Positions 821-28,664 of a stretch of 64,000 nucleotides of DNA are shown piece after piece. The notes under the pieces are model-generated. The model saw nothing but the letters and a program-made list of their open reading frames with translations. It had not been told where the DNA came from and searched no databases. Positions within the stretch are counted from its first letter, which is position 1. Each line of letters begins with the position of its first letter. Made by a program: the position numbers and the translations under genes. Where the stretch lies: the NCBI GenBank assembly GCA_964463045.1, contig CAYXAU010000018.1, positions 4,443-68,442 of the forward strand. Reading direction: 5' to 3'. Source of the DNA: an uncultured Candidatus Sumerlaeota bacterium. GTDB taxonomy: Bacteria > Sumerlaeota > Sumerlaeia > MVZB01 > JAJFLK01.

Positions 821-1765
821 TCAGGCCCCTTCGCGCTCGAAGACCAGAATCGGGCGGGCGGGGCAGCGGTCCTGCCAGAGGGTCTTGTCGGCGGCGAAGA
901 GAACGACGAGCTGCGTCAATCGGCCGGGCTGAAGGTTCACGATAAGGCGGTCGGCGAGGGAATGGCAGAGGAAGAGGCCGCGGCCGCGTTCATCGAGAAG
1001 CCCGTGCGCGTCGATGTGGCGCTCGATCTTTTCGAGCGCCCGATCCCGCCGGAGGCGTCCCTGATTATCGGCGACGTCGACGGCGAAGGTTCGAGCATCG
1101 CGACCGTAGTCGAGCGTGACCTCTTCGCCCGGCTCCAGCGTTTCGAAGTTGCGGATGGAGTATTTCTCGACGCCGTCGGCTGATTCGAAGGCGTGGTAGA
1201 CGGCGTTATTGAGCGCCTCTTCCAGGACGAGCCGCAGATCGAAGCCGCCGCGCGAATCGGGCCGGAACGTCTGGAAGTCGGCCACGACGCTGTCGAGGAC
1301 GGTAACCTTGGTCTCGCGGTCGCGGACTTCCAGCCGGCGAATCGGCGCCTCCGGGGCCAGATGCTCGGCCAGGCCGGGCTCCGGACCCCCGCGCTCGATC
1401 CACTGCGCCCAGGTCTCCAGCTCCTCGGGGTAATCCAGGGCCTCAGCGGGGAAGACCGCCGACAGGCCGAGCCGCCGGGCCGTCGTCAACGCCGGTCCCA
1501 TTCGCCCGACGGATTCCAGGGCGGCCAACACCGGCCGGGCGGGCAGATCCGCGAGCGCCTGAGCCAGTTCGATCGTTTCCTCGCTCAACGCCCCCCCCTG
1601 GATGAGCACGAGCGGTCGATCCTGATCGCGCACGGCCTCGATCAGCTCGATGACCGAGAGCGAACGCAGGAGGCGCCGCCCCAGAGCCCGGCCGGGAAGC
1701 GGATCGGCCTCCTCGGCCTGGAGCAGCAGCACGGCGCGTTGATCAAGTCGCGGCAGGCGGCTCAT
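821..1765 (-). CDS. Receiver-like domain fused to GHKL/HATPase_c anti-sigma-factor-type Ser kinase (RsbW-like)
   Basis: N-terminal degenerate CheY-like segment (RPLVLIQGG...ARPVLAAL); C-terminal LVLEEALNNAVYHA ... GRGLFL motifs typical of RsbW/SpoIIAB-type HATPase. Confidence 0.5.
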   Translation of the reverse strand: MSRLPRLDQRAVLLLQAEEADPLPGRALGRRLLRSLSVIELIEAVRDQDRPLVLIQGGALSEETIELAQALADLPARPVLAALESVGRMGPALTTARRLGLSAVFPAEALDYPEELETWAQWIERGGPEPGLAEHLAPEAPIRRLEVRDRETKVTVLDSVVADFQTFRPDSRGGFDLRLVLEEALNNAVYHAFESADGVEKYSIRNFETLEPGEEVTLDYGRDARTFAVDVADNQGRLRRDRALEKIERHIDAHGLLDERGRGLFLCHSLADRLIVNLQPGRLTQLVVLFAADKTLWQDRCPARPILVFEREGA

Positions 1766-1804
1766 GAGGCGCTTTCGGGGGAGACACCCGGGCGGTGAGG
1801 GACA

Positions 1805-2800
1805 TCAGGCCGTCCCGCCCGAGGAAGCCGCCGAGCCGGTCGTTTCGTCGTGGGCGCGCATGAGGGCCATCGGGCCGGCAACCCAGATCGAAATCTCGAA
1901 CAGACCGATGAGCGGCACCAAGGCCATCAGCATGGAAACGACGTCGGCCGGCGTCATCAGCATGGCCAGGACGGCCAGACCGACGTAGATATGGCGGCGG
2001 TAATGCCGCAGGAACGCGGGCGTGACGATCCCGACCCGCGCCAACACGGCCACGACCAACGGTAGCTCAAAGATCAGGCCGAAAACAATCATCATCGTCG
2101 TCATGAGCTTAAGGTAGATGCTCACGTTATAGAGGGTGTCGATGCCGCTGACGACGTAGCGGTTCATGACCGGAATGACGAGCCAGACCATGCCATAGGC
2201 GAACAACGCCCCCACGGGAAACAGAAACACCGCCCCGACGAGCATCGGCCTGACGACGCGCTTTTCCTTCGGCGTCAGACCCGGCGCCACGAAGAGCCAG
2301 GCCTGCCAGACCCAGACCACCAGCGAGACCAAAATCCCCAGGATGACGGCCACTTTGATCTGGATCATGAGCGGGTCGATCGGGCTGGCGTAAACGATCT
2401 TGCTCTCCCGGCCGGCGACGGAACCGCCCAGACTGAGCGTCGTCGCCGAGCCGTCGGCGGCCGTCAGGACCAGCAGCGCCTGATCGAACACGCCGCGCAG
2501 GTCCTCCGGCTCGCTCTGGACGAGTAGCCGCGGATTGGCCAGTCGCAGCGTCCCGTCGGGGGCCACCTCCAGGCGGAGGCGCTCCGGCTCGGGCGCCATC
2601 AGCCGGCCCGGATCGAAGATGTGCGTGACGGGTCGGATCATCAGCTCGACGGCTCGTCGGGCGAAGAAGAGCATCAGGAGCGTGGCGACGATCAGCGTCC
2701 CGAAGGAAATCAAGAGACGCAGGCGGAGCTCCCCCAGATGGCCGAGGAGCGGCATCTCCCTCTCAGGATTGAGATCAGGTCGTTTCTTGAATACGGCCAC
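1805..2800 (-). CDS. tatC: Sec-independent protein translocase TatC, with ~80 aa insertion after TM1
   Basis: N-terminal MPLLGHLGELRLRLL signature, 6 TM segments; 331 aa vs ~250 typical; adjacent tatA. Confidence 0.85.
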   Translation of the reverse strand: MAVFKKRPDLNPEREMPLLGHLGELRLRLLISFGTLIVATLLMLFFARRAVELMIRPVTHIFDPGRLMAPEPERLRLEVAPDGTLRLANPRLLVQSEPEDLRGVFDQALLVLTAADGSATTLSLGGSVAGRESKIVYASPIDPLMIQIKVAVILGILVSLVVWVWQAWLFVAPGLTPKEKRVVRPMLVGAVFLFPVGALFAYGMVWLVIPVMNRYVVSGIDTLYNVSIYLKLMTTMMIVFGLIFELPLVVAVLARVGIVTPAFLRHYRRHIYVGLAVLAMLMTPADVVSMLMALVPLIGLFEISIWVAGPMALMRAHDETTGSAASSGGTA

Positions 2801-2942
2801 GAGTCAGACGCCCCTCAAGCGTCAGCCCCCGGCAGGCGTTGGCGGCTTGGACGGGCCCTCAGGCTTCCGTCACGTTCGCTCGTTGACGCGCAACGTGAGA
2901 CCGCCCGCGGGCGCGGATCGGCCGCGCGCCTCGGCCGGGGAT

Positions 2943-3221
2943 TCAGTCGCTTTTGTCTTCAGCGGCGGGCTCGCGGGCCTGAGCCGCCGAAGTGACTTTG
3001 GAAGGGGGGTCGATCGAGGGGTGGGCTTTTTCGGGTTTTTCGGGCCGTTCGGCTTCGTCCATCGCACCGCGGATTTCATCGTCGACGCCGCTCAGACCGG
3101 ACTTGAAGTCTCGGATCGCCTTGCCCATCGAGCTGGCCAGCTTCGGCAGGTTCTTCGGGCCGAAGATAATCAGCACGATGACCATGACGACGAGGAGTTC
3201 CTGGTAACCGACGCCAAACAT
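2943..3221 (-). CDS. tatA: Sec-independent translocase TatA/E
   Basis: MFGVGYQELLVVMVIVLIIFGPKNLPKLASSMGKAIRDFK is a canonical TatA N-terminus; GGAGG RBS; internal ATG at 3221 preferred over ORF start 3293. Confidence 0.8.
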   Translation of the reverse strand: MFGVGYQELLVVMVIVLIIFGPKNLPKLASSMGKAIRDFKSGLSGVDDEIRGAMDEAERPEKPEKAHPSIDPPSKVTSAAQAREPAAEDKSD

Positions 3222-3495
3222 GGTCTTTTTTGACCTCCCGGCTTCCCGCGCGGTCCAGCCCCGCCGCGCCGTAATCGACCCCGCGGCCACCACCCCCGAC
3301 CCCGATGAACGCCCCCTTGGGGCGGTTCAGCCTGGGGCCGGGTCAAGCCGGGCCTTAGTCCAGGCCAGCATAGCGAGGCCTTCAACCCGGCGTCAATCAA
3401 TCGTTTGAGCGGCGACAGGGCTACTCCCGCAAGGGCGGGATCGGGGGAGCGCGGCCTCGGATGGACTCGCGGCGGATTCCCGCCGGGGGCCCCAG

Positions 3496-4065
3496 ATGCA
3501 AGTTGACAAGGCGGCCGCGGCGGGCCTAGATAGGGCGACTGCGCTCGAAGGGGCGATGCTTTCCACGACGGGCATGCGAAGTTCGACCCCGGCCATCGCC
3601 GCCCAGGGGCCGCTGGGCTGGTTGGGCCTTTTCATCGGATGGATGATCCCGGGGGCCGGCTTCCTGATCTGGGGGCGATGGGTCCGCGGTCTGACCTGTT
3701 TCTTTTTGATTCACTTGACCTTCGGCCTGGGGCTCGTCCTGCACAGCGGCGTGGCCTGGCCCTCCTGGTCGTTCCGGTCCGAAGAATTCAACCTGATCAA
3801 CAACTTCACCTTCATCGTCCAGATGGGCACCGGGCTGCCGGCCCTGGCCAGCTTTCTGGCCTCGCAGTGGGTGCAGGAGCCGGGGGCAGGCCTGGCGTGG
3901 CTGGCCGGGGCCCCCAAGCACCCTCACTATGAGCTCGGCAGCTACTTCCTGATCGTGGCCGGGGCGCTCAATTACTTCGTCGTCGGCAACTTTTATGACC
4001 GGCTCGTCCGGCCTCGCCCCCCCTTCACGGCGCAGGAACGGCCGGAGGGAGCCCCCTCGGCGTGA
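3496..4065 (+). CDS. hypothetical polytopic membrane protein
   Basis: 4-5 hydrophobic helices, GC3-biased; no recognisable family. Confidence 0.45.
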   Translation: MQVDKAAAAGLDRATALEGAMLSTTGMRSSTPAIAAQGPLGWLGLFIGWMIPGAGFLIWGRWVRGLTCFFLIHLTFGLGLVLHSGVAWPSWSFRSEEFNLINNFTFIVQMGTGLPALASFLASQWVQEPGAGLAWLAGAPKHPHYELGSYFLIVAGALNYFVVGNFYDRLVRPRPPFTAQERPEGAPSA

Positions 4066-4247
4066 CCTCCCTCGGTCTTCTTCATATCGGGTCCCTGGTC
4101 TACCTTTCCGGGGTCATCTGCCTGGTGATCAGCCTGAACGAGAATCGGGACCCCCTGATCATCCTGCGGGAGACCCTCCGCCGGTGGGTCAAGTTCCTGG
4201 GCCTGAGCCTCCTGATCGCCGTGGCGGTCCACCTTCTGAGCCGCTGA
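4062..4247 (+). CDS. small (61 aa) two-helix membrane protein, GTGA-overlap coupled to upstream gene
   Basis: GTG start overlapping stop of previous ORF; two TM helices; weak evidence. Confidence 0.3.
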   Translation: MTSLGLLHIGSLVYLSGVICLVISLNENRDPLIILRETLRRWVKFLGLSLLIAVAVHLLSR

Positions 4248-4288
4248 GCGGGGGGGCGGGGGGTCAAAAAAAAAGAATCCGAAGGGGC

Positions 4289-4317
4289 TTGACAGGGGCG
4301 GGGGGGTCTGATCTAGT
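4289..4317 (+). promoter_or_regulatory. sigma-70-like promoter: TTGACA, 17 nt spacer, TCTAGT; preceded by A9 tract (UP-like) at ~4266-4274
   Basis: perfect -35 hexamer at 4289-4294, -10-like at 4312-4317, ~60 nt upstream of the 4377 start codon. Confidence 0.3.
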
Positions 4318-4376
4318 AGCCATCAAGCTTTTCATCCAAGCTCCCCTATCCTTACCCGGAAAGGAGGGATTGGTAC

Positions 4377-5057
4377 ATGCGCGGCAAGGGTTTCACGCTC
4401 ATTGAGCTGCTGATCGTGGTGGCGATCATCGCGATCCTGGCGGCCATTGCGGTGCCGAACTTCCTGGAGGCGCAGGTCCGTTCGAAGGTCTCGCGGGTGA
4501 AGAACGACCAGCGAGCCTACGCCACGGCGTTGGAGTCGTATTACATCGACAACAACAACTATCCGGCCGTGGACAATTCGACGGCGGCCAACGAAGCGGC
4601 CCCCTTTGGCCATGGCGTCAATGCGCTGCCGAACGCCTCGACGTTCCTGCGGAACATGCCGACGTTCCGTCGCAAGCGGAACCAGGCTGACCCGCTCAGC
4701 ACGTTGACGACGCCGGTGTCCTACCTGAGCTCGATGCTCTCGGACACCTTCGCCAAGACGGCGGGCGCGATCTTCTCTTACTCGACAGCCGACGTCACCT
4801 TGGGGCGGGCGGCCGTCAAGGCCGGATGGATCATCTGGTCCTTCGGCCCGGACCTGGACGAGACGACGGCGCAATCGACCGGCGCCCAGTACGGCGGCAA
4901 CATCGGCGTCAGCAACGCCGGCGCCGAAGGGACGCGGGTTGAGACCGCCTACTACAACCCGCTCGGCCAGGTGCCGTCCCCGACGCTGATCGCGATCACC
5001 TATGACGCCACCAACGGCACGACGTCCCGCGGCGATATCTACCGCGTTAAGCAGTAG
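4377..5057 (+). CDS. prepilin-type N-terminal cleavage/methylation domain protein (GspG-like pseudopilin / type IV pilin-like)
   Basis: MRGKGFTLIELLIVVAIIAILAAIAVPNFLEAQ classic prepilin leader + hydrophobic helix; strong AGGAGG RBS. Confidence 0.8.
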   Translation: MRGKGFTLIELLIVVAIIAILAAIAVPNFLEAQVRSKVSRVKNDQRAYATALESYYIDNNNYPAVDNSTAANEAAPFGHGVNALPNASTFLRNMPTFRRKRNQADPLSTLTTPVSYLSSMLSDTFAKTAGAIFSYSTADVTLGRAAVKAGWIIWSFGPDLDETTAQSTGAQYGGNIGVSNAGAEGTRVETAYYNPLGQVPSPTLIAITYDATNGTTSRGDIYRVKQ

Positions 5058-5108
5058 CCTTCGTCCGCCGGACGCCTGAGGCTGACCCCCAAGCCGATTG
5101 ACAAGACT

Positions 5109-5141
5109 GGGCCTGCCCTTCCGGGCAGGCCCTTTTTCTTT
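5109..5141 (+). terminator. rho-independent terminator (10 bp GC stem gggcctgccc/gggcaggccc, loop ttcc, then tttttcttt)
   Basis: perfect hairpin followed by T5 run 52 nt after the pilin-like stop codon. Confidence 0.7.
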
Positions 5142-5256
5142 CGTCCCGCCTCGCGTTGACGCCGCCGGCCAACCTCCCTTAAGATCGGACGGCAGAGGCC
5201 TTCGGGTCGCCAACCGTCGCGCCCCGGCCTGACCGGGGCGACGGGCTTTCCCCCGC

Positions 5257-6705
5257 ATGAGCGTTCCCCGTTTCCGACGCGCCTTGCTCGTCAACCCCCC
5301 GACGGGGCTTTTCCGGCGGGACGATCGCTGCCAATGCAAGGTCGAGGACCAGACGGTTCAGATCACGTTTCCGCCGATCGAGCTGGCTTTACTGGCCGCC
5401 GTCCTGCGCCGGGCCGGGGCCGAGCCCTTCGTCCGGGACTATCCGGCCCGCGGGGAGGGGTGGGCCCGATACGTCGCCGATCTGAAGGCCCTTGAGCCCG
5501 ATTTCGTGCTGGTCAACGTGGTGACGGCGACAGCGGCCGGCGATTTCCAGGCCTGCGCCGCCGCCAAAGAGACGCTCGGCCCCAAGGCGATGACCGCCGC
5601 CAAGGGCGAATACATGGAGGCTCTGGGGGTGGAGGCGCTCCGAGATCACCCTGAGGTCGACGTGGGCTTTCACGGGGAAGTCGAACGCGTGATCGAGAAG
5701 TTCCATCGGGGGGAGGCCCTGGCGACGTTGCCGGGGGTGATCTATCGGGATGGAGCCGCCGCCGACGGGCCGGGGCGGATCCATCGCAACCCCGGCCATC
5801 CGGTCGTCGACAATCTGGACGAACTCCCCTACCCGGCGCGCGATCTGCTGGAGAACGAACTTTACCGCAGCCCGGAGAGCGGGCGGCCGTTGACGGTGAT
5901 CCACGGCAATCGGGGCTGCCCGGCCCATTGCATCTTCTGCCCGGCGGGGGTGATTTCGGGCTTCAGCGTGCGTTATCGCTCGCCGGCGAACGTTCTCGGC
6001 GAGATCGAGGAGTGCGTCGAGCGGTTCGGCATCGACGAATTCCTCTTCCACGGGGACACGTTCACGCTCAACAAATCCTGGACGATCGAGCTGTGCGAAC
6101 GGATCGTCGAGCGGGGCCTCAAGATTCGGTGGGGTTGCAACAGCCGGGTGGACACGTTGGACGACGAACGAGCCGCGGCCATGAAGCGCGCCGGTTGTTG
6201 GGTGGTCGCCTTCGGCGTCGAAACCGGCAATCAGGACCTCCTCGACCGAATGAAGAAGGCCGCCACGCTCGCCGACGCCGAGCGCGCCGTCGCCGTCTGC
6301 AAGCGCCACGGTCTCCGCACGCACGCCTTCTTCGTCATCGGGCTGCCGTGGGAGACCGAGGCCACGCTGGCGCAAACCCTCGATTTCGCCCGGAAGCTCG
6401 ACACCGACTTCTTCGACTTCAACATCGCCTACCCGCTGCCCGGCACGGAATTTTACGAGATGGCCGTGGCGGAGAACCTCTTCGAGGCCCCGCCCGAAAC
6501 CGGCGGTTACGCCCGCGCCGCCGTCGGCTCCTACGAACTCTCCGCCGAACGCCTCACCGAGTGGCGCCGCCAGGCGCTCCTGGCCATGTACCTCCGGCCC
6601 GGCTATATCGCCCGCACGCTCCTCAAAAGCCGTTCCCCCCGCGTGACCGCCAACTACGTGCGGGCAGGGGCGCGCCGGCTAAGGCAGCTCCTGACCGCCT
6701 CCTGA
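5257..6705 (+). CDS. B12-binding domain-containing radical SAM protein (class B)
   Basis: N-terminal cobalamin-binding-like region; CPAHCIFCP (CxxxCxxC) radical SAM cluster motif; ~480 aa typical of class B rSAM. Confidence 0.8.
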   Translation: MSVPRFRRALLVNPPTGLFRRDDRCQCKVEDQTVQITFPPIELALLAAVLRRAGAEPFVRDYPARGEGWARYVADLKALEPDFVLVNVVTATAAGDFQACAAAKETLGPKAMTAAKGEYMEALGVEALRDHPEVDVGFHGEVERVIEKFHRGEALATLPGVIYRDGAAADGPGRIHRNPGHPVVDNLDELPYPARDLLENELYRSPESGRPLTVIHGNRGCPAHCIFCPAGVISGFSVRYRSPANVLGEIEECVERFGIDEFLFHGDTFTLNKSWTIELCERIVERGLKIRWGCNSRVDTLDDERAAAMKRAGCWVVAFGVETGNQDLLDRMKKAATLADAERAVAVCKRHGLRTHAFFVIGLPWETEATLAQTLDFARKLDTDFFDFNIAYPLPGTEFYEMAVAENLFEAPPETGGYARAAVGSYELSAERLTEWRRQALLAMYLRPGYIARTLLKSRSPRVTANYVRAGARRLRQLLTAS

Positions 6706-6736
6706 GGACAACGGCGGCGGCCCCCCGCCGCGCGGG

Positions 6737-8383
6737 TCAATGGCGATACAGCCTCCACCGGGGGGTTGTTTCGTTCGGTGGCGGGAGGGTGAAGGGGAGG
6801 ATCATATCGTCGGCCAGTTCGCCGCCGACGCCGTTGCCGTTGGCGTCCAGATAGTTCTCGGCCGGATCACGGAGGCCGAAAAAGCCGCGCAACGTGAGCG
6901 TGTAGCCGCCCCCGGGAGCGTTGGCCAGACGAAGCCGGAGGATGCTCCCCTCGGTCACGATGGCCTCGGGTCGGAACCGGATCGGGGCCTGGTCCAGATT
7001 GGGGTCGCTCCAGCGCAGGTCGATGGCCGAGGGGAAGTGGGGCAGGGCGATCGGTTCGCTCAACTCGACGGCGATATCCGCTCCGCGGCCGGGCCGGGTG
7101 ATCTCCAGGCCGACGACTTGAGGGGGCGTCACGTCCGGCATCGAGGGTGGGCCCCCTTCGCTGTCCACCGTCCAGGCCCAACCGAGCGTCAGCATCTCCT
7201 GATCCGTGAAGAGTCCCCCCCGGACGTCGTGATTGAAGGGGTTGTCCCATGTTCCGACAACCCGGATGTTGGTTCCGGCGGGAAGCGCGACGGGACGATG
7301 GTAAACGTAGAACTCCTGCCAGTCGAAATCCCATCGATCGATCCGGATGAGCGGGATTTGACGACTGTCGGGCAGAATGGCCGTCGCCGAATACGTGCTC
7401 CCGATCGTGTGCATGTGCGGGAAAACGGCGATGACGTGTCGGCTCGTCGGTACGGAGACATTCATTGTCAACTGATAGCCCTGGGCGCCGGCCGGCACGG
7501 TGAAGTCGATCCGCGTGGGGATCGCCTGGTAAAGCCGCCGGACGCCGGGGTCCTGGCTCACGTTGAGCCCCAAGCGCGTTCGATCCGTCTCGGGGACCCC
7601 CGACGGGTGATAATGCATCTGGACGATGATGTTGCTCCCCGCCGGGAGCTCGAAGCCCAGTTCCGACGTGTAGGGCTGGAAACCGCCGCCCGGCGCCCAG
7701 CCGCCCATGACGACGCTCCCGGACAAGCCCGGCCCGCCGAAGCAATCCCAGCCGTCGTTCGGGCCCCCCTGTTGAGCGTCCCGCGCCGGGCCGAGGTTAT
7801 TGGGATCGCTGTAGAGGACGGCGTGGTGCGCGATGCGGAGATTGTCCGGCTGGAATTGCAACCCCACGATCTTCGTCGGCTCGGTGAAGCCGGTCGGGAG
7901 GACAAAGCAGCGGTAAACGTCGCCTCCCGTCGCCCACATCTGCCACGTCTCGGCCATCTCCAGTACGAGGTCCGGCTCGCCGAACCGCCAGCCGTCGGGA
8001 TGTTCGATCGGCGGCGGAGCGTCTTCGGGGTCCCCGGCCGGCCCTCCGGCGTCCACCCAGCCCAAAAGGACGTCGATCTGTTCCTGCGTCAGGGAACGGT
8101 CGGGCTTGAAGCCCTGGCCGGGTTCGAAGCCCTGCTCCAGCGCCGCGTTCCAGGGGGGCATCAGGCGATTGGCAACATTGAAACGAATGAGGGCGAGCCG
8201 GCTTTCGGCCACCGTCTCCTCGTAGGTCTCCATGCTGAATGGGGCCAGCCCCCCCTCGATGTGACAGAGCGTGCATTTGGCTTGCAGCAGCCGGCCGATC
8301 TGGCCGTAATAGGTTGGATCGCCCGGATCGGCCGCGACCCAGCCCGCCAACCCCATCCACGCAAGGCATAATCCACGGCGCAT
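6737..8383 (-). CDS. secreted PSCyt1-type c-type cytochrome domain fused to PHM/DBH-like type-2 copper monooxygenase, with ~150 aa C-terminal beta-rich extension
   Basis: signal peptide MRRGLCLAWMGLAGWVAA; CTLCH haem motif + MPP motif (PSCyt1); HH (AHHAVLY), MHYH, HMH, WDFDWQ, TDQEM copper-site motifs; GGGAGG RBS before ATG at 8383. Confidence 0.6.
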   Translation of the reverse strand: MRRGLCLAWMGLAGWVAADPGDPTYYGQIGRLLQAKCTLCHIEGGLAPFSMETYEETVAESRLALIRFNVANRLMPPWNAALEQGFEPGQGFKPDRSLTQEQIDVLLGWVDAGGPAGDPEDAPPPIEHPDGWRFGEPDLVLEMAETWQMWATGGDVYRCFVLPTGFTEPTKIVGLQFQPDNLRIAHHAVLYSDPNNLGPARDAQQGGPNDGWDCFGGPGLSGSVVMGGWAPGGGFQPYTSELGFELPAGSNIIVQMHYHPSGVPETDRTRLGLNVSQDPGVRRLYQAIPTRIDFTVPAGAQGYQLTMNVSVPTSRHVIAVFPHMHTIGSTYSATAILPDSRQIPLIRIDRWDFDWQEFYVYHRPVALPAGTNIRVVGTWDNPFNHDVRGGLFTDQEMLTLGWAWTVDSEGGPPSMPDVTPPQVVGLEITRPGRGADIAVELSEPIALPHFPSAIDLRWSDPNLDQAPIRFRPEAIVTEGSILRLRLANAPGGGYTLTLRGFFGLRDPAENYLDANGNGVGGELADDMILPFTLPPPNETTPRWRLYRH

Positions 8384-8539
8384 GATCAGCCTCCCATGAT
8401 CCGGCCCAATCTTAGCCCCGGCGGGCCGAGATTGCCAACCCTTCCGGCCCATGGCCGCCCGACCTCGGGGGGCTGATGCCGAGCCGGCGCTCCGGAGCTA
8501 TGATTCGGGCGCGGACGCCCGCGCCGGAGCCCGCCGGCC

Positions 8540-10654
8540 ATGAATGCCCGACCCCGATACCTCCTCTGCCCACCGGACTTTTTCCAGGTCCGCTACGTGA
8601 TCAACCCCTGGATGAGAGGCAACGTCGGGCGGGCCGACCCGGGCCGCGCGCGCCGGCAGTGGGAGGCCTGGCGGGCGGCCCTGGCCGAGTTCGCCGATCT
8701 TGAAGCCGTCCCGCCGGCCGAGGAACAGCCGGACATGCCCTTCGCGGCAAACGCCGGGCTGGTCCTTGGGGAAGTCTTCATCCCGGCCCGGATGCGCTTC
8801 CCCCAACGGCAGGGAGAAACGCCACGCTTCCGCGACTGGTTCAAGCGGCGCGGCTATCGGGTCGTCGAGCTGGAGGACGCCGGGTCCTTCGAGGGCGAAG
8901 GCGACGCGCTGTTCCAGCCGGGGGAGCCGCTCCTCTGGTGCGGCTATGGCGTGCGGAGCTCCCTCCAGGTCTATCGCCAACTGGCGGCGCTCCTTGACGT
9001 CGAGATCGCCCTCCTGAGGCTGGTGGACGAACGGTTCTACCATCTGGACACGTGCTTCTGCCCGCTCCCCGACGGCCGGGCGATGTATTACCCCGAGGCC
9101 TTCGACCAGGAATCAGTCGAAACGCTCAGGCGCCGGTTCGCGCCGGAGCGGCGGCTGGAGATCGGGGCCGAGGACGCGCTCCGCCTGGCTTGCAACGCCG
9201 TCGTCCTCGGCCGGGTGCTCCTCCTGCACGGCGCAGGGCCCGAGTTGCGCCAGAGGCTTTCGGCCTGGGGCTTGCAGACGCGGGTCTGTCCGCTCTCGGA
9301 ATTCCTCCTGGCCGGCGGTTCGGCCAAGTGTCTGGCGCTTTGTCTGTCCCATGCTCCGGCCCCTGGACGACGAACGCCGAGCGAGGCCGACTTCGGCGTT
9401 CGGGACCGCCTGGTCGAGCTGCAGGGGCCGTTGCTGGATTCCGGATTGATGAACGCGGCGCTCGATTGCGTCATCGAAGGAGGCGGCAGTTTCGAAGTCG
9501 AGCACTTCTCGGCGGGGCTCCGACGCGACCAGGATTCCTGGGCCCGGTTGCGGGTTTTTGCTCCGTCGGCGGCGCGATTGGAGACGGTCGTGGGCCGTCT
9601 TCTGCAACTAGGGGCGCGCGTCGCCGAAGAGGAACGCGACGCCCGGCTGGAGATCGTCACGCAGCCCGGAGTCGCCCCCGAGCACTTTTACTCGACGACG
9701 ATCTACCCGACGTTGGTCCGGATCGGCGGCCGCTGGGTCCGCGCGCGCCGGCAGCGGATGGACGCCCTTCTCGTGCTGGAGGAGGGCAGCGAGCCCGGGG
9801 TGAGGTGCGTCCTCCCGCGGCAGCTTCTGCCGGGCCAGAAGGTCGTCTGCGGCGTCGAAGGGATCCGGGTGCTTTCCGGGGGAACGGCGCCCCGGACGGA
9901 GGGCTTCGAGTTCATGGGGTCGGAGGTTTCGAGCGAGCGGCGCGTCGAGGCGGCCATCCGGCGGATCGCCTGGGAGATGCGACGCGTCCGGGCCCGGAAG
10001 GGAAGGATCGTGGTGGTCGCGGGGCCCGTCGTGATCCACACCGGGGGCGGGCCCTACCTGGCCCGGCTCGTTCAGCTCGGCTACGTCCAGGCCCTTCTCG
10101 GGGGGAACGCCATTGCGGCCCACGACATCGAGCAGGCGCTTTTCGGCACGTCGCTGGGGGTGGATCTGAAGCGCGGCGTCAACGTTCACGGGGGCCATCG
10201 GCACCATCTGGAGGCGATCAATCTGGTGCGCCGCTGTGGGGGGATCGTCGAAGCCGTACGGCAGGGCCATCTACGCCGAGGCGTCTTTTACGAATTGGTT
10301 CAGCGGGGCATCGCCTTCGCCCTGGCTGGTTCCATCCGAGACGACGGGCCGCTGCCGGAGACCTGGACCGACATGATCGCCGCCCAGGACGAATACGCCC
10401 GGCTCATCGAGGGGGCGGAGATGATTCTCCTGTTGGCCTCGATGCTCCACGCGATCGGCGTGGGCAACATGACGCCGGCCGGCGTCCGGCTCATCTGCGT
10501 GGACATCAACCCGGCGGTCGTGACCAAGCTGGCCGATCGGGGCTCAATGGAGACCGTCGGCGTCGTTACCGACGTGGGCCTGTTCCTCAACCTGCTGACG
10601 CGTGCCCTGGAGGGCGAAGCGGACGAAGAGGCGCCGTCGGAAGCCGAGCCCTGA
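8540..10654 (+). CDS. argZ: bifunctional arginine dihydrolase / ornithine-cyclodeaminase-like enzyme (ArgZ/AgrE family): amidinotransferase-fold N-domain + LOR/SDH-like C-domain
   Basis: 704 aa; N-domain YLLCPPDFFQVRYVINPWM, FYHLDTCFCPL, GGSAKC with Cys at residue 264; C-domain matches the LOR/SDH-like TIGR00300 region; length matches cyanobacterial ArgZ/AgrE. Confidence 0.55.
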   Translation: MNARPRYLLCPPDFFQVRYVINPWMRGNVGRADPGRARRQWEAWRAALAEFADLEAVPPAEEQPDMPFAANAGLVLGEVFIPARMRFPQRQGETPRFRDWFKRRGYRVVELEDAGSFEGEGDALFQPGEPLLWCGYGVRSSLQVYRQLAALLDVEIALLRLVDERFYHLDTCFCPLPDGRAMYYPEAFDQESVETLRRRFAPERRLEIGAEDALRLACNAVVLGRVLLLHGAGPELRQRLSAWGLQTRVCPLSEFLLAGGSAKCLALCLSHAPAPGRRTPSEADFGVRDRLVELQGPLLDSGLMNAALDCVIEGGGSFEVEHFSAGLRRDQDSWARLRVFAPSAARLETVVGRLLQLGARVAEEERDARLEIVTQPGVAPEHFYSTTIYPTLVRIGGRWVRARRQRMDALLVLEEGSEPGVRCVLPRQLLPGQKVVCGVEGIRVLSGGTAPRTEGFEFMGSEVSSERRVEAAIRRIAWEMRRVRARKGRIVVVAGPVVIHTGGGPYLARLVQLGYVQALLGGNAIAAHDIEQALFGTSLGVDLKRGVNVHGGHRHHLEAINLVRRCGGIVEAVRQGHLRRGVFYELVQRGIAFALAGSIRDDGPLPETWTDMIAAQDEYARLIEGAEMILLLASMLHAIGVGNMTPAGVRLICVDINPAVVTKLADRGSMETVGVVTDVGLFLNLLTRALEGEADEEAPSEAEP

Positions 10655-10693: not shown

Positions 10694-11830
10694 TTGCCGT
10701 TTCGTTCGGCGCGGGGGCTTGATAGGATCGATCGGTCCGCCCTTCGGGGCGGCTTGAGGCCTGATTCGCCTCCGGTGAATCGCTTGAACCCATCAGCGCG
10801 AACGTCGGCGGAGGCGCCCGCCGGGGGGCGGGTGCTCTCCGGCAACCGCCCCACGGGTCCGCTGCACCTGGGGAACTACCTGGGGGCGCTTGAGAATTGG
10901 GTGCGGCTTCAGGACGCCCACGCCTGCTATTTCATGGTCGCCGACTGGCACGCGCTCACGTCCGATTACGCCGACACGAGCGGCCTGCCGCAATACACGC
11001 GCCAAATGGTGCTGGACTGGCTGGGGGCGGGGCTGGACCCGCGCCGGTCGGTTCTGTTCATCCAATCCCAGGTCAAGGAACACGCCGAACTGGCGCTCCT
11101 GCTGGGGATGTTCACGCCGGTCCCCTGGCTGGAGCGAACCCCGTCCTTCAAGGAAATCCAGCAGCAGCTCCACGAGCGGGACCTGAACACGCACGGCTTC
11201 CTCGGCTACCCCGTGCTCCAGGCCGCCGACATCCTGGCCTATAAGGCGACGATCGTCCCCGTGGGGGAGGATCAGGTGGCCCATCTGGAGCTGGCGCGCG
11301 AGATCGTGAGGCGGTTTCACCACCTCATCGGGCGGGAGGTTTTTCCAGAGCCTCAGCCCCTGCTCTCGCCGGTTCCCAAGCTCACGGGCACCGACGGGCG
11401 CAAGATGAGCAAGTCCTATAATAATTGCATTTACCTCTCGGACGGTTCGGCGCAGGTCTGGGACAAGGTCAAGGAGATGGTCACCGATCCGGCGCGCGTC
11501 CGGCGGTCCGACCCGGGGCATCCGGAGGTCTGCTCGGTTTACGCCTATCACGAGGTCTTCACGCGGCCCGAACGGGAGACGATCGCCGCCGATTGCCGCG
11601 CGGCCCGGATCGGCTGCGTGGACTGTAAGCGCAAGCTGCACGCCTCGCTGGAAGCCTTGCTGGAGCCCATCCGCGCGCGGCGCGCCCCGCTGGAAGCCCG
11701 CCCGGCCCAGGTCGATGAAATCATCGAGGAGGGCAACGCGCGGGCGCGGGCCGTGGCGGAGGAGACGCTCGGAGAAGTGCGCGCGGCCCTTCATCTCCCG
11801 TCGGCCGCTCCCCTTTCGGCGCGGGACTGA
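10694..11830 (+). CDS. trpS: tryptophan--tRNA ligase
   Basis: GPLHLGNYLGAL (HIGH-like) and KMSKS motifs; true start probably downstream (GTG ~10775 or later), N-terminal 30-40 aa of ORF likely not translated. Confidence 0.85.
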   Translation: MPFRSARGLDRIDRSALRGGLRPDSPPVNRLNPSARTSAEAPAGGRVLSGNRPTGPLHLGNYLGALENWVRLQDAHACYFMVADWHALTSDYADTSGLPQYTRQMVLDWLGAGLDPRRSVLFIQSQVKEHAELALLLGMFTPVPWLERTPSFKEIQQQLHERDLNTHGFLGYPVLQAADILAYKATIVPVGEDQVAHLELAREIVRRFHHLIGREVFPEPQPLLSPVPKLTGTDGRKMSKSYNNCIYLSDGSAQVWDKVKEMVTDPARVRRSDPGHPEVCSVYAYHEVFTRPERETIAADCRAARIGCVDCKRKLHASLEALLEPIRARRAPLEARPAQVDEIIEEGNARARAVAEETLGEVRAALHLPSAAPLSARD

Positions 11831-11841
11831 ACCTTTCGGCC

Positions 11842-12633
11842 ATGCCGGACTACAAGATCAAGCTCAACGTCTTCGAGGGGCCGCTGGATTTGTTGCTCCA
11901 CCTGGTCAAGATCAACGAGATGGACATCTCTGAAATCCCGATTGCCGAGATCACGCGGCAGTATCTGGATTACCTGCGGTTGATGGAGACGCTGGACCTT
12001 GAAGTGGCCGGGGATTTTCTTGTCATGGCCGCGACGCTCCTGAACATCAAGCTCCGGGCGCTCCTGCCGGATTCGACTGCGCCCGAGGAGGAAGCCGAGG
12101 AGGTGGAAGACATCCTCACGGCCCGGGCGCTGATGGAGAAGCTGATTCAGTATCGCCGATTCAAGGAAGCCGCCGCCGCCCTCCAGGAACGGGAAACCGT
12201 CCAGGCCCGCGTCTTCCTGCGCGAGGTCGCCCTGCCCCGGCTGGACCAGGCCGAGCGGGACGACGATATGCGGCTGGAGCTGGCGGCCTTGTTGCAGGCC
12301 TTCGGCCGCGTGGCCCGCTACGTCGCTGATCGGCCGGGCTACGTCGTCGCCGAAGAAGCTTACGCGGTCGAGGACCAGATGGCCCAGATTGCGCGGCGCA
12401 TCGAGGTCGAAAAACGGCTATCGGTCGAGGAGCTGTTCGGCCGTTGCGGCTCCAAACTCGAGATGATCGTCTGCTTGCTGGCCATCCTGGAGCTGTTCCA
12501 CGAGCGGCGGCTCCGGCTGGAACAGAGCGGCCCTTTCGCCCCGATTTACCTCTTTGAGGCCGACCCGGAGGGGGGAGCCGACCCTTCGGCCCCACCCGAG
12601 CCGGGGCCGACGGCCGCCGCGGGTGAGCCATGA
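11842..12633 (+). CDS. scpA: segregation and condensation protein A
   Basis: MPDYKIKLNVFEGPLDLLLHLVKINEMDISEIPIAEIT canonical ScpA N-terminus. Confidence 0.85.
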   Translation: MPDYKIKLNVFEGPLDLLLHLVKINEMDISEIPIAEITRQYLDYLRLMETLDLEVAGDFLVMAATLLNIKLRALLPDSTAPEEEAEEVEDILTARALMEKLIQYRRFKEAAAALQERETVQARVFLREVALPRLDQAERDDDMRLELAALLQAFGRVARYVADRPGYVVAEEAYAVEDQMAQIARRIEVEKRLSVEELFGRCGSKLEMIVCLLAILELFHERRLRLEQSGPFAPIYLFEADPEGGADPSAPPEPGPTAAAGEP

Positions 12634-13358
12634 AAGCTCAGCGAGGCTTTCTCGGCCGCGGTCGTCCTGGCCGGTCGGCGAGCCCTGGCGAGCCGATCGC
12701 CGAGGAGGAGCCCTGGCCGGAGACCGTGGCCGAGGATGAAGGGACCGAGGAAGAGGACCTGGAGCCGGCCGGTCAAGGGGCGTGGCTCACGCTTCTGGCG
12801 GTGACGCTCAGCCTGGGGATCATCGGGTGGGGGGTGTGGACGTTACGCGAGGTCGTTCGCCGCGGGTACCTGGATCAGTTGCGCTATGATTTCCGGGACG
12901 TGAGTCTGTTGCCCGAGGCGCGCCTCTCGGCGCTGGTGACGGCTCATTCGGTGAGGATTTTCTTTACGCACGACGGCCGAACGCTGACCCCCTCCGTCCG
13001 GCGCCTGCGCCGCGAGGTCTCCGGCCCGGAGAAGGCGCGCCTGATCCTGGAAGAACTTTTCGCCCCGCCCCGGTCGGCGGTTTTTCGTTCGGCGTTGCCG
13101 CCGGGGACGCGCTCGCGCGGCTTCTATCAGATCGGGCGGATCGCCTACCTCGACCTGAGCGAGGAGTTTCTCAGCCCGCCGGAGCCGACGCCGGAGGGGG
13201 AACGGCTGGCCGTCTATGCGCTCGTCAACAGCATCGTGCTGAACGATCCCGGCCTGGACGGTCTGCAACTGATGGTTAACGGCTATCCGATCGAGACGGC
13301 CTGGGGATGGTTGGATTGCTCCTCGCCGCTCGCTCCCAATCTCTCGATCGTTCAGTAG
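12630..13358 (+). CDS. GerMN domain-containing membrane-anchored protein
   Basis: ATGA overlap with scpA; N-terminal TM; VRIFF...ILEELFAPP...SALPPGTR...IAYLDLSEEF...VYALVNSIVLN fits GerMN; not ScpB-like. Confidence 0.55.
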   Translation: MKAQRGFLGRGRPGRSASPGEPIAEEEPWPETVAEDEGTEEEDLEPAGQGAWLTLLAVTLSLGIIGWGVWTLREVVRRGYLDQLRYDFRDVSLLPEARLSALVTAHSVRIFFTHDGRTLTPSVRRLRREVSGPEKARLILEELFAPPRSAVFRSALPPGTRSRGFYQIGRIAYLDLSEEFLSPPEPTPEGERLAVYALVNSIVLNDPGLDGLQLMVNGYPIETAWGWLDCSSPLAPNLSIVQ

Positions 13359-21434: not shown

Positions 21435-21561
21435 TCGCCGTTCAGGGCGAGCTAAGTTATTTCGTCTCAGTCGATCCCATACCGGAGCAGGTGCGAATGG
21501 CGACCACTCGTCGGTTGGATCGGGACGGCGTGAACTAAGACTATAACGCGTTTAAGTTTTG

Positions 21562-21576
21562 TGGAACGAAACCTGC
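21562..21576 (+). promoter_or_regulatory. sigma-54 (-24/-12) promoter TGGAACG-aaac-CTGC
   Basis: matches TGGCACG-N4-TTGC at 9/11 defined positions with exact GG-N10-GC spacing; ~66 nt upstream of the ATG at 21642. Confidence 0.45.
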
Positions 21577-21641
21577 GGAATATGCGCAAAGGAAGGGCAG
21601 AAATGCCGCACATGCCCGCGGATCGCAACAGGAGATCAACC

Positions 21642-22907
21642 ATGACCCGAATCCCTTCCCTGATCGTCGGCTTGGCGACTTTCCTCGGCCTGACCGTCCC
21701 GGCGGCAGCTCAGGAAGGCGCTCCGACGTTCTACCGGGACATCGTCCCCCTTCTGCAGCGGAATTGTCAGAGTTGTCATCGTCCGCAGGGGGCCAACCTG
21801 GGCGGGATGGTCGCCCCGATGGCGCTGGTGACCTACGCCGAAGTCCGGCCATGGGTTCGGTCGATCCTCCGACAGGTGGAGGATAATCAGATGCCCCCCT
21901 GGCACGCCTCGCCGGCCTTCAAGGGCGTCTTCGAGAACGAGCGTTCGCTCAGTGAGGAGGAAGTGGCCGTGATCGCCCGCTGGGCGCGGGCTGGAGCCCC
22001 CGCCGGACGGGAGGCCGAGGCGCCGCCGCCCATAGCCTTTCCCGAGGCCGGATGGGCCATCGGCGAGCCGGACCTCGTCCTGTCGTTTGACGAGCCCTAC
22101 GTCGTCGCCGATGAGGTCGAGGACCAGTACGTCAACTTTACGGTCGACGTTCCCGAAGACCTGCACGCCGAGGACCGTTGGATGCAGGCGTTGGAATTCA
22201 AGCCGGGCAGCGCCGTGGTTCACCACATCATCGGCTACGCCTATGCGCCTGGGACCGGGGCGATCGGCGCCGACCGGGGGATGGTGGGCGGGATCGCGCC
22301 GGGCAATGACCCGGAGAGTTGGCCTGAAGGTTACGGGATGATGCTTCGCAAAGGCTCCAAATTCACCTTCGCCATGCATTACCACAAGGAGAAAGGCCCC
22401 GGGACGGCGACGGCGGACCGCTCCAGCGTCGGCATCAAGTTCCATCCCAAGGGCTCGAAGGTTCGGCCCATGACGATCGAAGCGATCGGGAACATGGGTT
22501 TTGAGATTCCCCCGTTCCACAAGGAATGGCACGTCGGGGCCGCCAAGACGTTCGACCGTCCGATCGAAGTCCATTACTGGATGCCGCACATGCACCTGCG
22601 CGGGAAGTCAGCCACGTATACGGCCTTCTATCCCGACGGAGGGCGCGAGGTCCTGCTCGATGTCCCCCGCTACGACTTCAACTGGCAGACCTCTTATCAG
22701 TACCGCGAACCGAAGCTCTTGCCGGCCGGCACGCGCGTCGAGGTCCTGATGACCTATGACAACTCGGTGGAGAACGCCGCCGTCCCGAACCCGACGATCC
22801 CCGTCCGCTTCGGCGGCCCCACGACCGATGAAATGGCGCTCGGCTGGCTGGCCTATGCCTACGCCGACGAAACGCCGCAGGACGAGGCCGAGGCGGCGGG
22901 CGGATGA
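21642..22907 (+). CDS. secreted PSCyt1-type c-type cytochrome domain fused to PHM/DBH-like type-2 copper monooxygenase
   Basis: signal peptide; CQSCH haem motif, NQMPPW and ARWARAGAP (PSCyt1); VVHHIIGY, AMHYH, PHMHLRG, RYDFNWQ, GGPTTDEMALGW (DBH-like TRDEMC Met ligand region); AGGAG RBS. Confidence 0.65.
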   Translation: MTRIPSLIVGLATFLGLTVPAAAQEGAPTFYRDIVPLLQRNCQSCHRPQGANLGGMVAPMALVTYAEVRPWVRSILRQVEDNQMPPWHASPAFKGVFENERSLSEEEVAVIARWARAGAPAGREAEAPPPIAFPEAGWAIGEPDLVLSFDEPYVVADEVEDQYVNFTVDVPEDLHAEDRWMQALEFKPGSAVVHHIIGYAYAPGTGAIGADRGMVGGIAPGNDPESWPEGYGMMLRKGSKFTFAMHYHKEKGPGTATADRSSVGIKFHPKGSKVRPMTIEAIGNMGFEIPPFHKEWHVGAAKTFDRPIEVHYWMPHMHLRGKSATYTAFYPDGGREVLLDVPRYDFNWQTSYQYREPKLLPAGTRVEVLMTYDNSVENAAVPNPTIPVRFGGPTTDEMALGWLAYAYADETPQDEAEAAGG

Positions 22908-23148: not shown

Positions 23149-25104
23149 TTAAGGCTGGCGGGAGGGAGGGCCGGCGTCGATGGTCTTCATCTTGCGCCAG
23201 AGCGTGGCCGGGTTGATGCCCAAGAGCCGAGCCGCGACCGAGCGCTTGCCGGCGGTGTATTCCAGGGTCCGGAGAATGTGAAGGCGTTCAAGCTCACGGA
23301 TGGTCAACGGTTCCCAACCGGTCGGTCGCAGGGCGTGAGCGGCCGCCGCCGACGGAGCGGAGGGGCCGCTTCGTGGACCGGAGGCTGCCGGGGGACTTTC
23401 GCGCTCGCGGGCGCGGCGGCGGTGAGCGATGCCCTGGAGGATCGAGACGACCTGGGTGCCGAGGACGGTCGCCCGTTCGATGACGTTTTCCAGTTCGCGG
23501 ATGTTGCCGGGCCACTCGTATTCCGTGAGGATCCGCATGTCGTCCTCGCCGACGATCGATTCACGCCGGACGGAGCCCTTGCCGTACTTCTCGACGAAGA
23601 AATCGACGAGCAGCGGGATGTCCTCGACGCGTTCGCGCAGGGGCGGGACGTGGATCGGCAGGACGTTCAATCGGAAAAACAGGTCCTGACGAAACAAACC
23701 TTCCTCGAGCAGCCTTTCCAGGTCGCGGTTGGTGGCGGCGATGAGGCGAACGTCGACCGAGAGTGTTTCGGTGCCGCCGACGCGCGAGAATTCGCGCTCC
23801 TGAATGAACCGCAGAAGCTTGACCTGCATGTTCAGGTCGAGCTCGCCGATCTCGTCCAGGAAGATCGTCCCCTTGTCAGCGGCCTCGAACCGGCCGATCT
23901 TGAGCGCCTCGGCCCCCGTGAACGCGCCCCGTTCGTGGCCGAACAGCTCGCTCTCGATGAGCGTCTCCGGAATGGCGGCGCAATTGACGGGCATGAAGAC
24001 CCGGTCCCGACGGGCTGAGTTATTGTGAATGGCCCGGGCGATGAGTTCCTTGCCCGTGCCGTTCTCGCCGGTGATCAGCACGTTGGCGTCGCTGGCGGCC
24101 GCCAGACGGGCCAGCCGAAGGACGCGCTGCATCGGAAGGGCCTTGCCAATGATCGGGCGGTCGCCGTGGACCTCCATCACGGCCCCGGCGTCCCGCTCGG
24201 CGGCTCCCCCCTTGGAAAGGGCCGAGAGAGCGGGGGGGTCCTCCGGCCCCTGCCGGCGCGCGGGCGAGAGGCCCTCCAGCGGGGCATAGCGGCCTTCCCG
24301 CTCGTAGATCAGATTCATATGGTAGATGGCCCCCGGGTGGCCGGGCCGATCGCGCAGGACGCGGTGGAACTGTTCGATGGCCTGGCTCACGTGACCCAAC
24401 TCGAGGCGGGCGATGCCGAGATTGCAGCGAACTTCGATCGTGGGCTCCAGCCGGGCGGGGTCATCCCCATGACGCTTCAAGTAGATTTCCAGGTGCTCGA
24501 CGGCCCGGGCGAAGTCACGCGCCTGAAAGTAGAGGTTAGCCAGGTGGCGGCGGGCGCCGTCGTGAGCCGGGTTGAGCCCCAGGGCGCGATGGAAGTAATG
24601 CTCGGCGGCTTCGGTCTCGCCATGGTTCCAGCAGGCGATGGCCAGGTAATAGGAACAGTCCGCCTGAAACTCGGCCCCATCGCCGAAGAACAGACCGAGA
24701 TAGAAACGATCGGGCGCGATGGCGACGGACGCCTCGGCCAGCCCGCCGAAGAGTTCGCGAGCCTGCTCGATGCGCCCTTGGTTGATCAGAATCTGGCCGA
24801 GATTGTATTGAGCCTCGACGTCGGTCCGGTCGTGGTCGAGGAGGGCGCGATAGTGCTTCTGGGCCTCGTCGGTCAGGCCGGCGTGATAGAGCCCGTGGGC
24901 GTAGCAACGGGCCACGTCGGGATCGTTCGGCGCGATCTGGCGGGCGCGCTTGAACTCCTTGAGGGCCGCGTCGTAGCGCATCTCGGAGAAGTGACGGATG
25001 CCTTCATGGAGCGCCAGAGCCGCCCCCACGACGGCCGCGCCGCAATGGGAGCACTGCCCGGCGCCGAGGGCCAGGCTCCGCCGACACTGGACACAACTCA
25101 ACAT
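23149..25104 (-). CDS. sigma-54-dependent transcriptional activator (bEBP) with N-terminal zinc-ribbon + TPR sensor region and C-terminal Fis-type HTH
   Basis: GENGTGKE Walker [16 protein letters not shown] (GAFTGA) motif, C-terminal [23 protein letters not shown]; N-terminus CxxC...CxxC then ~6 TPRs instead of a receiver domain. Confidence 0.8.
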
Positions 25105-27434: not shown

Positions 27435-27480
27435 ACGGGCCCGCCCGCGGACCCAGCCCCCTCAACGGAGCCCAGCCTCG

Positions 27481-28611: not shown

Positions 28612-28664
28612 ATCTCGGGCGGCGGCGCCGCCGGTAGCCACCGCCGAGGAACTGAGCCCGAACG

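Follow-up and report, generated by a model that had tools for sequence, protein, structure and literature searches.

In a 64,000-nucleotide stretch of DNA from an uncultured Candidatus Sumerlaeota bacterium (assembly GCA_964463045.1, contig CAYXAU010000018.1, positions 4,443 to 68,442; hereafter the window) we analysed a minus-strand gene at 6737-8383 that combines a c-type cytochrome with a copper monooxygenase core. Based on its sequence and a structural model, the product is probably an exported redox enzyme of three domains, in which a haem c domain would reduce a copper core of the PHM/DBH type and an immunoglobulin (Ig)-like tail follows at the C-terminus, while the genes nearby are probably not linked to it. 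The reading frame itself, a paralogue in the window, the diagnostic motifs, the C-terminal extension and the neighbouring genes had been pointed out in a preliminary description of this DNA, and all of them are confirmed in the sequence.

Gene and domain organization

The gene and its elements, in the direction of transcription, are:

8409-8438, minus strand: sigma-70-like promoter match TTGGCA-18-TAAGAT (consensus scan, 9/12 matches; consensus match only)
8390-8395, minus strand: Shine-Dalgarno sequence GGGAGG, read from the sequence, 6 nt 5' of the ATG at 8383
6737-8383, minus strand: gene for the cytochrome c/PHM-type copper monooxygenase/Ig-like fusion (open reading frame including the stop codon; 390+ homologues; AlphaFold2 model)
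8330-8383, minus strand: predicted Sec signal peptide, residues 1-18 (MRRGLCLAWMGLAGWVAA, cleavage before DPGD), read by eye
8024-8320, minus strand: monohaem c-type cytochrome domain, residues ~22-120 (helical in the AlphaFold2 model; CxxCH and M75)
8261-8275, minus strand: haem-attachment motif C37-T-L-C40-H41 (C37, C40 and H41 conserved in at least 90% of 66 homologues)
8159-8161, minus strand: M75 of the MPPW motif, putative distal haem ligand (M75, P76 and W78 invariant in the 66 homologues)
7169-7996, minus strand: PHM/DBH-type copper monooxygenase core of two beta-sandwiches, residues ~130-405 (fold and ligands)
7823-7828, minus strand: H186-H187, corresponding to the CuH ligands H107/H108 of PHM (invariant; aligned to PHM 'VHHMLLF')
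7613-7615, minus strand: H257 in LQMHYH, corresponding to the CuH ligand H172 of PHM (invariant; aligned to PHM 'LQVHYG')
7409-7417, minus strand: H323-M-H325, corresponding to the CuM ligands H242/H244 of PHM (invariant; aligned to PHM 'VHTHHLG')
7316-7333, minus strand: W351-D-F-D-W-Q356, signature of the bacterial family (nearly invariant; unrelated PHM residues there in the profile alignment)
7193-7195, minus strand: M397 in DQEM, corresponding to the CuM ligand M314 of PHM (invariant; aligned to PHM 'SDEMCN')
6791-7135, minus strand: Big_5-type bacterial Ig-like beta-sandwich, residues ~417-531 (fold searches and homology to protein P0244)

The open reading frame extends from 6737 to 8452 on the minus strand. 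The start at 8383 is favoured over that at 8452 because of the Shine-Dalgarno sequence 6 nt upstream, and the resulting product of 548 amino acids is identical to a protein called on public contigs (P0001). The promoter-like site found in the consensus scan (8438-8409, minus strand) falls within the longer reading frame; it sits in the divergent intergenic region common to the copper enzyme gene and an ArgZ-like gene. We take it as the putative promoter of the copper enzyme gene itself, which reads as a stand-alone, separately transcribed unit.

The copper monooxygenase core

The AlphaFold2 model, for which 66 homologues were aligned, is confident (predicted local distance difference test, pLDDT, 86; predicted template modelling score, pTM, 0.81) and resolves three domains. 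In a Foldseek search with this model the copper core matches the catalytic core of PHM/DBH with an E value of 1e-13, the nearest solved fold being PHM; a search of the PDB with the single sequence of the protein gave 0 matches. The family profile reaches the PHM sequence with an E value of 4.6e-16 and places all six copper ligands in register, together with Q170 of PHM, which aligns with Q255 of the window protein. The six ligands are invariant in the 66-sequence alignment, the window paralogue included. The motifs HH, HYH, HMH, WDFDWQ and DQEM, on which the assignment had originally been founded, are present and invariant or nearly so in the 66 homologues. Loss of copper ligands in this copy, named beforehand as an observation that would speak against the assignment, was looked for, and every ligand is retained.

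The ligand set of PHM and the residues that bind the peptide carboxylate in this enzyme, R240, N316 and Y318, are described in PMC12164859. In the profile alignment these three positions are occupied by F321, T399 and G401 in the window protein, which is therefore not a PHM orthologue; for the same reason its substrate should not be a C-terminal glycine peptide held in the manner of PHM. PF01082 gave no Pfam match on the protein, though many homologues carry both PF01082 and PF03712. Taken by fold and ligands, the core belongs to the PHM/DBH class without being PHM proper, and it lies just below the Pfam thresholds.

The signal peptide and the cytochrome c domain

The N-terminus of the protein (MRRGLCLAWMGLAGWVAA) is hydrophobic, homologues have equivalent hydrophobic N-termini, and the model has low pLDDT at residues 1-20. 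A lipoprotein reading of this region (RGLC) was dropped, as the lipobox is not fitted. The domain that follows has the hallmarks of a c-type cytochrome, i.e. a CxxCH motif and a candidate distal methionine, M75, whose role as a ligand is putative. Pfam returned matches to Cytochrome_CBB3 and Haem_bd, both below threshold. The domain had earlier been labelled PSCyt1, which it resembles in its small size, its single haem, its CxxCH followed further on by MPP, and its helix of the pattern 'L..ee...l..W...GA'. However, PSCyt1 (PF07635) gave no Pfam match at E<=10, neither with the full protein nor with its N-terminal 151 amino acids, and the broader label of a c-type cytochrome is the one that is supported. 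In contrast to the planctomycete PSCyt1 domain, the one in the window protein is not accompanied by PSD1/PSCyt2.

The C-terminal Ig-like tail

The C-terminal extension, first described as beta-rich and about 150 amino acids long, is real: residues ~406-548 (~140 amino acids) are all-beta in the model. Pfam gave no match on this tail, Big_5 (PF13205) included, and we identified it through fold searches and through the Big_5 match of a homologue, P0244. The tail is 43% identical to residues 452-559 of P0244 (E 4e-23), and this segment scores 32.9 bits with Big_5 against a cut-off of 23.6; the tail segment of another homologue, P0003, matches Big_5 with an E value of 0.008. When modelled alone, the tail has a pLDDT of 72.5, gives fold matches of the same kinds and adopts an Ig-like beta-sandwich. 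A homologue search with the C-terminal 139 amino acids alone returned nothing, the query protein itself included. Besides the window protein, the Big_5 tail was seen only in P0002-P0005, P0244, P0245 and P0247.

An acidic loop, LDxNGNGxGGExxDD, is conserved in the tail and forms its sole low-confidence stretch; judging from its sequence it may be a Ca2+ site. A reading of the tail as a CopC-like copper chaperone was set aside, since the likeness is one of fold only and inspection of the alignment revealed no conserved copper-binding pattern of the CopC type. P0245, a metagenome protein of 1095 amino acids that belongs to the Big_5 subclade and is 47% identical to the window protein, carries a fused N-terminal Peptidase_M6 (immune inhibitor A) domain.

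Family and relation to known enzymes

The family comprises 11,586, 6,481 and 2,103 representative clusters (50% identity) at E<=1e-3, 1e-10 and 1e-30, respectively. Species-representative genomes contain at least 596 matches, distributed over Planctomycetota, Acidobacteriota, Armatimonadota, Rokubacteria, Poribacteria, Latescibacterota and others. The databases name its members 'ascorbate-dependent monooxygenase', 'peroxiredoxin' or 'mono/diheme cytochrome c family protein', and the named relatives of the window protein are from Hydrogenedentota, with 38-45% identity. In the architecture seen most often, an AhpC-TSA/Redoxin (peroxiredoxin or thioredoxin-like) domain stands at the N-terminus; TPR, EF-hand and type IX secretion system (T9SS) tails also occur. 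The uncharacterised bacterial 'ascorbate-dependent monooxygenase' or 'peroxiredoxin-cytochrome c-Cu2_monoox' proteins of Planctomycetota, Acidobacteriota, Armatimonadota and other phyla are homologues of the window protein: across the cytochrome c domain and the copper core they are 33-49% identical to it, and they share its invariant residues. Most of them have either Redoxin/AhpC-TSA at the N-terminus or a tail of the TPR, EF-hand or T9SS kind; the window gene, one more member of this catalogued family, is set apart by its rare Big_5 tail. A literature search that left most subscription journals outside its reach found no experimental study of the cytochrome-c-fused bacterial PHM-like family, and the reviews of PAM/PHM that were consulted mention no bacterial homologues.

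PHM, DBH and tyramine beta-monooxygenase (TBM) are familiar from textbooks as ascorbate-requiring enzymes of animals. The window protein differs from PHM (peptidylglycine alpha-hydroxylating monooxygenase), the catalytic core of PAM (PDB 1PHM/1SDW), in several respects. Identity is 14-17%; PHM lacks a haem domain and takes its electrons from ascorbate, whereas the window protein contains a fused haem c domain; the WDF[DN]WQ motif is found in the bacterial proteins only; and PHM is a eukaryotic enzyme of the secretory pathway, whereas the bacterial protein is predicted to be periplasmic. Dopamine beta-hydroxylase (DBH), TBM and MOXD1 (PDB 4ZEL) carry an N-terminal DOMON domain and not a c-type cytochrome (PMC12164859 and general knowledge). 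These enzymes are ascorbate-dependent and their C-terminal part is a dimerisation domain, whereas that of the window protein is the Ig-like Big_5 domain.

To look for conserved neighbours we collected 82 loci of the family, 80 from species-representative genomes, found with an alignment of 11 closer sequences, and those of the two closest relatives (1.33 Mb in total, including as much as 10 kb to either side). Clustering of the neighbours yielded TPR proteins at 16 loci, histidine kinases at 15, ABC ATPases at 9 and ECF sigma factors at 6, all of them generic. The TPR proteins, the commonest neighbours, also occur as fusion partners of the copper enzyme family. The nearest relative of the window protein, P0002 (49% identity), adjoins PilM, secretin and PolA; P0005 adjoins multihaem cytochromes, a cupredoxin and another family member. 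A 12.6-kb contig of a Hydrogenedentota metagenome-assembled genome (L002) carries two family members, at 1677-3590 and 11113-12624, and between them genes for three multihaem cytochromes (MtrC/MtrF-like domains) and for a cupredoxin that bears a surface Ig-like domain, a setting that looks like extracellular electron transfer.

Proposed function

The protein is most likely a periplasmic or surface copper monooxygenase in which the fused haem c replaces ascorbate as the electron donor. After Sec export, haem would be attached in the periplasm, and the haem c domain would then accept electrons one at a time from respiratory-chain carriers in the periplasm and hand them to CuH; in the animal enzymes this task falls to ascorbate (with cytochrome b561). 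From CuH the electrons would move on to CuM, where O2 would be activated and an aliphatic C-H of the bound substrate hydroxylated. At the envelope, or on a substrate that is a polymer or a protein, the enzyme might be tethered or oriented by the Ig-like tail, whose acidic loop possibly binds Ca2+. An analogy is provided by cellobiose dehydrogenase, whose cytochrome domain feeds the copper of LPMO, i.e. electrons pass one by one from a haem domain to an oxygenase site with mononuclear copper. This analogy is functional only: the folds are unrelated, the haem is of type b and not c, and the transfer takes place between proteins and not within a fusion.

More tentatively, and with some reserve, we propose that the family as a whole could be a self-sufficient, ascorbate-independent bacterial version of PHM/DBH, wired by haem c to the periplasmic respiratory chain, and that members of its small Big_5 subclade could act at the cell surface, where they would hydroxylate proteins, peptides or polymers of the envelope. 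If so, the family would offer a tractable, self-contained model for the long-debated electron transfer from CuH to CuM, and uncultured phyla would have a new way of modifying proteins after translation, or the cell surface, by oxidation; the family is also a possible source of new C-H hydroxylation biocatalysts. The importance lies with the whole catalogued family, which merits biochemistry, and the locus adds to it one uncommon domain combination. As neither the coupling to a radical SAM gene nor the lineage-specific expansion (see below) holds, the locus raises no fresh question of its own.

Several points weigh against the proposed haem-fed copper monooxygenase. Cu2_monoox_C (PF03712) reaches 20.0 bits on the protein against a cut-off of 23, and the protein stays under the Pfam cut-off for every cytochrome family. 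The signal peptide was predicted by eye, and the electron transfer from haem to CuH is proposed from the fusion of the two domains. The clustered neighbours of the 82 loci include no specific conserved partner gene, and hence offer no clue to the substrate. Finally, the frequent peroxiredoxin fusions of the family could suggest a peroxide-linked chemistry over plain hydroxylation.

This last point bears on an unlikely alternative in which the copper core would act as an oxidase or in a peroxide-linked manner, either turning O2 into H2O2 or water at CuM or using H2O2 as a co-substrate, in periplasmic redox defence or signalling. It would agree with the predominance of the AhpC-TSA/Redoxin fusion, with the lack of conserved substrate-pathway neighbours among the 82 loci and with the release of H2O2 by uncoupled PHM (PMC12164859). 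However, the full His3 and His2Met ligand sets together with the Q170 equivalent are those of enzymes that hydroxylate C-H bonds, the WDF[DN]WQ motif specific to the family points to a defined binding site, and the window protein itself has no peroxiredoxin domain.

It is rather improbable, though conceivable for the Big_5 subclade, that envelope proteins or peptides are the substrates proper, e.g. through hydroxylation of side chains or of the backbone, with a mode of recognition unlike that of PHM. The nearest solved fold is that of the peptide-modifying PHM, and Ig-like domains of the Big_5 type are characteristic of surface proteins, e.g. the S-layer protein SbsC. The fusion of P0245 to an M6 metalloprotease domain of the immune inhibitor A type is a weak hint at protein or peptide substrates as well, but it is one case only. 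The peptide-carboxylate residues R240, N316 and Y318 are absent, and neither a precursor gene nor a conserved neighbour accompanies the enzyme.

Neighbouring genes and the proposed coupling to radical SAM chemistry

The genes next to the copper enzyme are:

4377-5057, plus strand: prepilin-type gene with an N_methyl motif (Pfam)
5257-6705, plus strand: predicted B12-type radical SAM gene with a CPAHCIFC motif (Radical_SAM, PF04055, 90 bits; a neighbour only)
8540-10654, plus strand: ArgZ-like arginine dihydrolase gene, divergent from the copper enzyme gene

The preliminary description had raised the possibility that the copper enzyme and the adjacent radical SAM enzyme share a modification route. 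The radical SAM gene is present and convergent with the copper enzyme gene, and its product has the CxxxCxxC core. The B12-binding domain (PF02310) scores 26.6 bits, under the cut-off of 32.1, and the best NCBIfam match is HpnJ with 203 bits against a cut-off of 578; the best matches all belong to B12-type radical SAM families and lie far below their cut-offs. The stop codons of the two genes are separated by a gap of 31 nt, which holds a GC-rich hairpin, read from the sequence, with the stem 6714-6720/6725-6731. As the genes are convergent they are not co-transcribed, and a consensus scan gives the radical SAM gene a promoter-like site of its own at 5156-5185.

Absence of conserved synteny with B12-type radical SAM genes had been set beforehand as the result that would speak against the coupling, and the comparison was run from both sides. 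In the 82 loci of the copper enzyme, no homologue of the window's radical SAM, prepilin-type, ArgZ-like or DUF6677 genes was found at E<1e-5; relaxing the threshold to E<1 gave a single marginal radical SAM match with an E value of 0.037. From the other side we inspected 39 metagenome loci with relatives of the window's radical SAM enzyme, ~30 of them at 47-76% identity, with flanks of 8 kb. The copper enzyme occurs within 8 kb in 0 of these 39 loci, and no window neighbour recurs there. Four genomes with a TrpRS 71-74% identical to that of the window keep the block of TrpRS, ScpA and GerM, and in these relatives the stretch of ArgZ-like, copper enzyme, radical SAM and prepilin-type genes is not next to it. 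Because this stretch is missing beside the block in the four relatives, we regard window positions 3496-10654 as a variable region of the genome.

With 0/82 and 0/39 loci linked, the stretch absent from this position in four relatives and the genes convergent, the proposed coupling is refuted, and the radical SAM, prepilin-type and ArgZ-like genes are chance neighbours of the copper enzyme. A common pathway, in which C-methylation and hydroxylation would act on a shared small molecule or peptide, is accordingly very improbable. The two genes are adjacent, and both enzyme classes occur in the tailoring of natural products and of ribosomally synthesized and post-translationally modified peptides (RiPPs). 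Yet the closest relatives of the copper enzyme stand beside PilM/secretin/PolA or multihaem cytochromes. The radical SAM enzyme has no signal peptide and would, from what is known of its class, be cytoplasmic, whereas c-type cytochromes acquire their haem in the periplasm. There is no precursor-peptide-like reading frame nearby, the 61-amino-acid frame at 4062-4247 having two transmembrane segments. Least probable of all is that the protein keeps the fold without being a catalyst and serves only to transfer electrons or handle copper, since six ligands of the catalytic type are strictly invariant across thousands of diverged sequences, indicating selection on catalysis, and inspection of the aligned C-terminal domains revealed no conserved CopC-type copper-binding pattern.

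The copper enzyme, radical SAM, prepilin-type and ArgZ-like genes look like four transcription units, as strand changes isolate the copper enzyme gene, and a terminator and the promoter-like site would split the prepilin-type gene from the radical SAM gene. This terminator, a strong intrinsic one with a 10-bp stem (9 G-C pairs) and a T-run at 5109-5132 on the plus strand, directly follows the prepilin-type gene and would set it apart from the radical SAM gene as monocistronic. Of the prepilin-like gene previously described as strongly expressed, the identity as a prepilin-type gene with an N_methyl motif stands; the level of expression is not deducible from sequence.

Two diverged copies in the window

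The second member of the family in the window is:

21561-22907, plus strand: shorter paralogue made up of cytochrome c and copper core, lacking the Ig-like tail (reading frame of 448 amino acids)

Its start is probably a later methionine, at 'MTRIPS' (nt 21642). Pairwise alignment of the two copies gives 31% identity over 416 amino acids with an E value of 2e-46, in support of the diverged paralogue noted before, and the window contains no third copy. The genes are separated by 13.2 kb, or ~14.7 kb from centre to centre, so that the distance of 15 kb given initially is roughly right.

The presence of two copies had been taken to suggest a lineage-specific expansion. We therefore ranked the 120 best database homologues together with both window copies by similarity to each copy. 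The window protein ranks its paralogue 122nd of 122, and the paralogue ranks the window protein 113th. Each copy is 37-49% identical to relatives in other organisms and phyla, compared to the 31% between them. These values do not support a lineage-specific expansion. Because each copy is nearer to proteins of other organisms than to its sister, the two represent old subfamilies that coexist in one genome, with no recent duplication. Carrying several copies is common outside the window as well: a second family copy within 10 kb was found at 4 of 82 other loci.

Further observations at the locus and in related genomes

The ArgZ-like protein is full-length, with the LOR/SDH N-terminal domain and both ArgZ-like C-terminal domains (319 bits), and belongs to an uncultured, non-cyanobacterial lineage. 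The 61-amino-acid reading frame at 4062-4247 (plus strand) overlaps by 4 nt with the stop of the DUF6677 gene (3496-4065). It encodes a hydrophobic protein with two transmembrane segments, probably a small membrane partner of DUF6677, and a reading as a RiPP precursor was dropped on account of this hydrophobic two-segment character.

TrpRS (10832-11830, plus strand) has its best named matches in Candidatus Sumerlaeota (BRC1), with 61-71% identity. The block of TrpRS, ScpA and GerM (10832-13358) is kept in the loci L124-L127, where the adjoining stretch from the ArgZ-like gene through the copper enzyme, radical SAM and prepilin-type genes to DUF6677 is not found. Among the loci of the radical SAM relatives, L104 and L107 (3369-4928 and 8001-9371) have a second B12-type radical SAM paralogue, 31% identical, 3 kb upstream of the orthologue, and a neighbour of ~390 amino acids recurs at 6 loci of the orthologue. 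The radical SAM enzyme may thus belong to another conserved context.

Directly downstream of the shorter paralogue, and convergent with it, lies a gene for a TPR-domain sigma-54 activator (bacterial enhancer-binding protein, HTH_8) at 23149-25104 on the minus strand. About 4 kb from the same paralogue, an unusual bc-type complex is encoded at 26652-32111 on the plus strand. It consists of a split cytochrome b, with an N-terminal part at 26652-27434 (PF00033, 148 bits) and a C-terminal, subunit-IV-like part at 27481-28611, followed by a multihaem c-type cytochrome of 1148 amino acids with several CxxCH motifs. This complex of cytochrome b and multihaem cytochrome c could be a source of periplasmic electrons.

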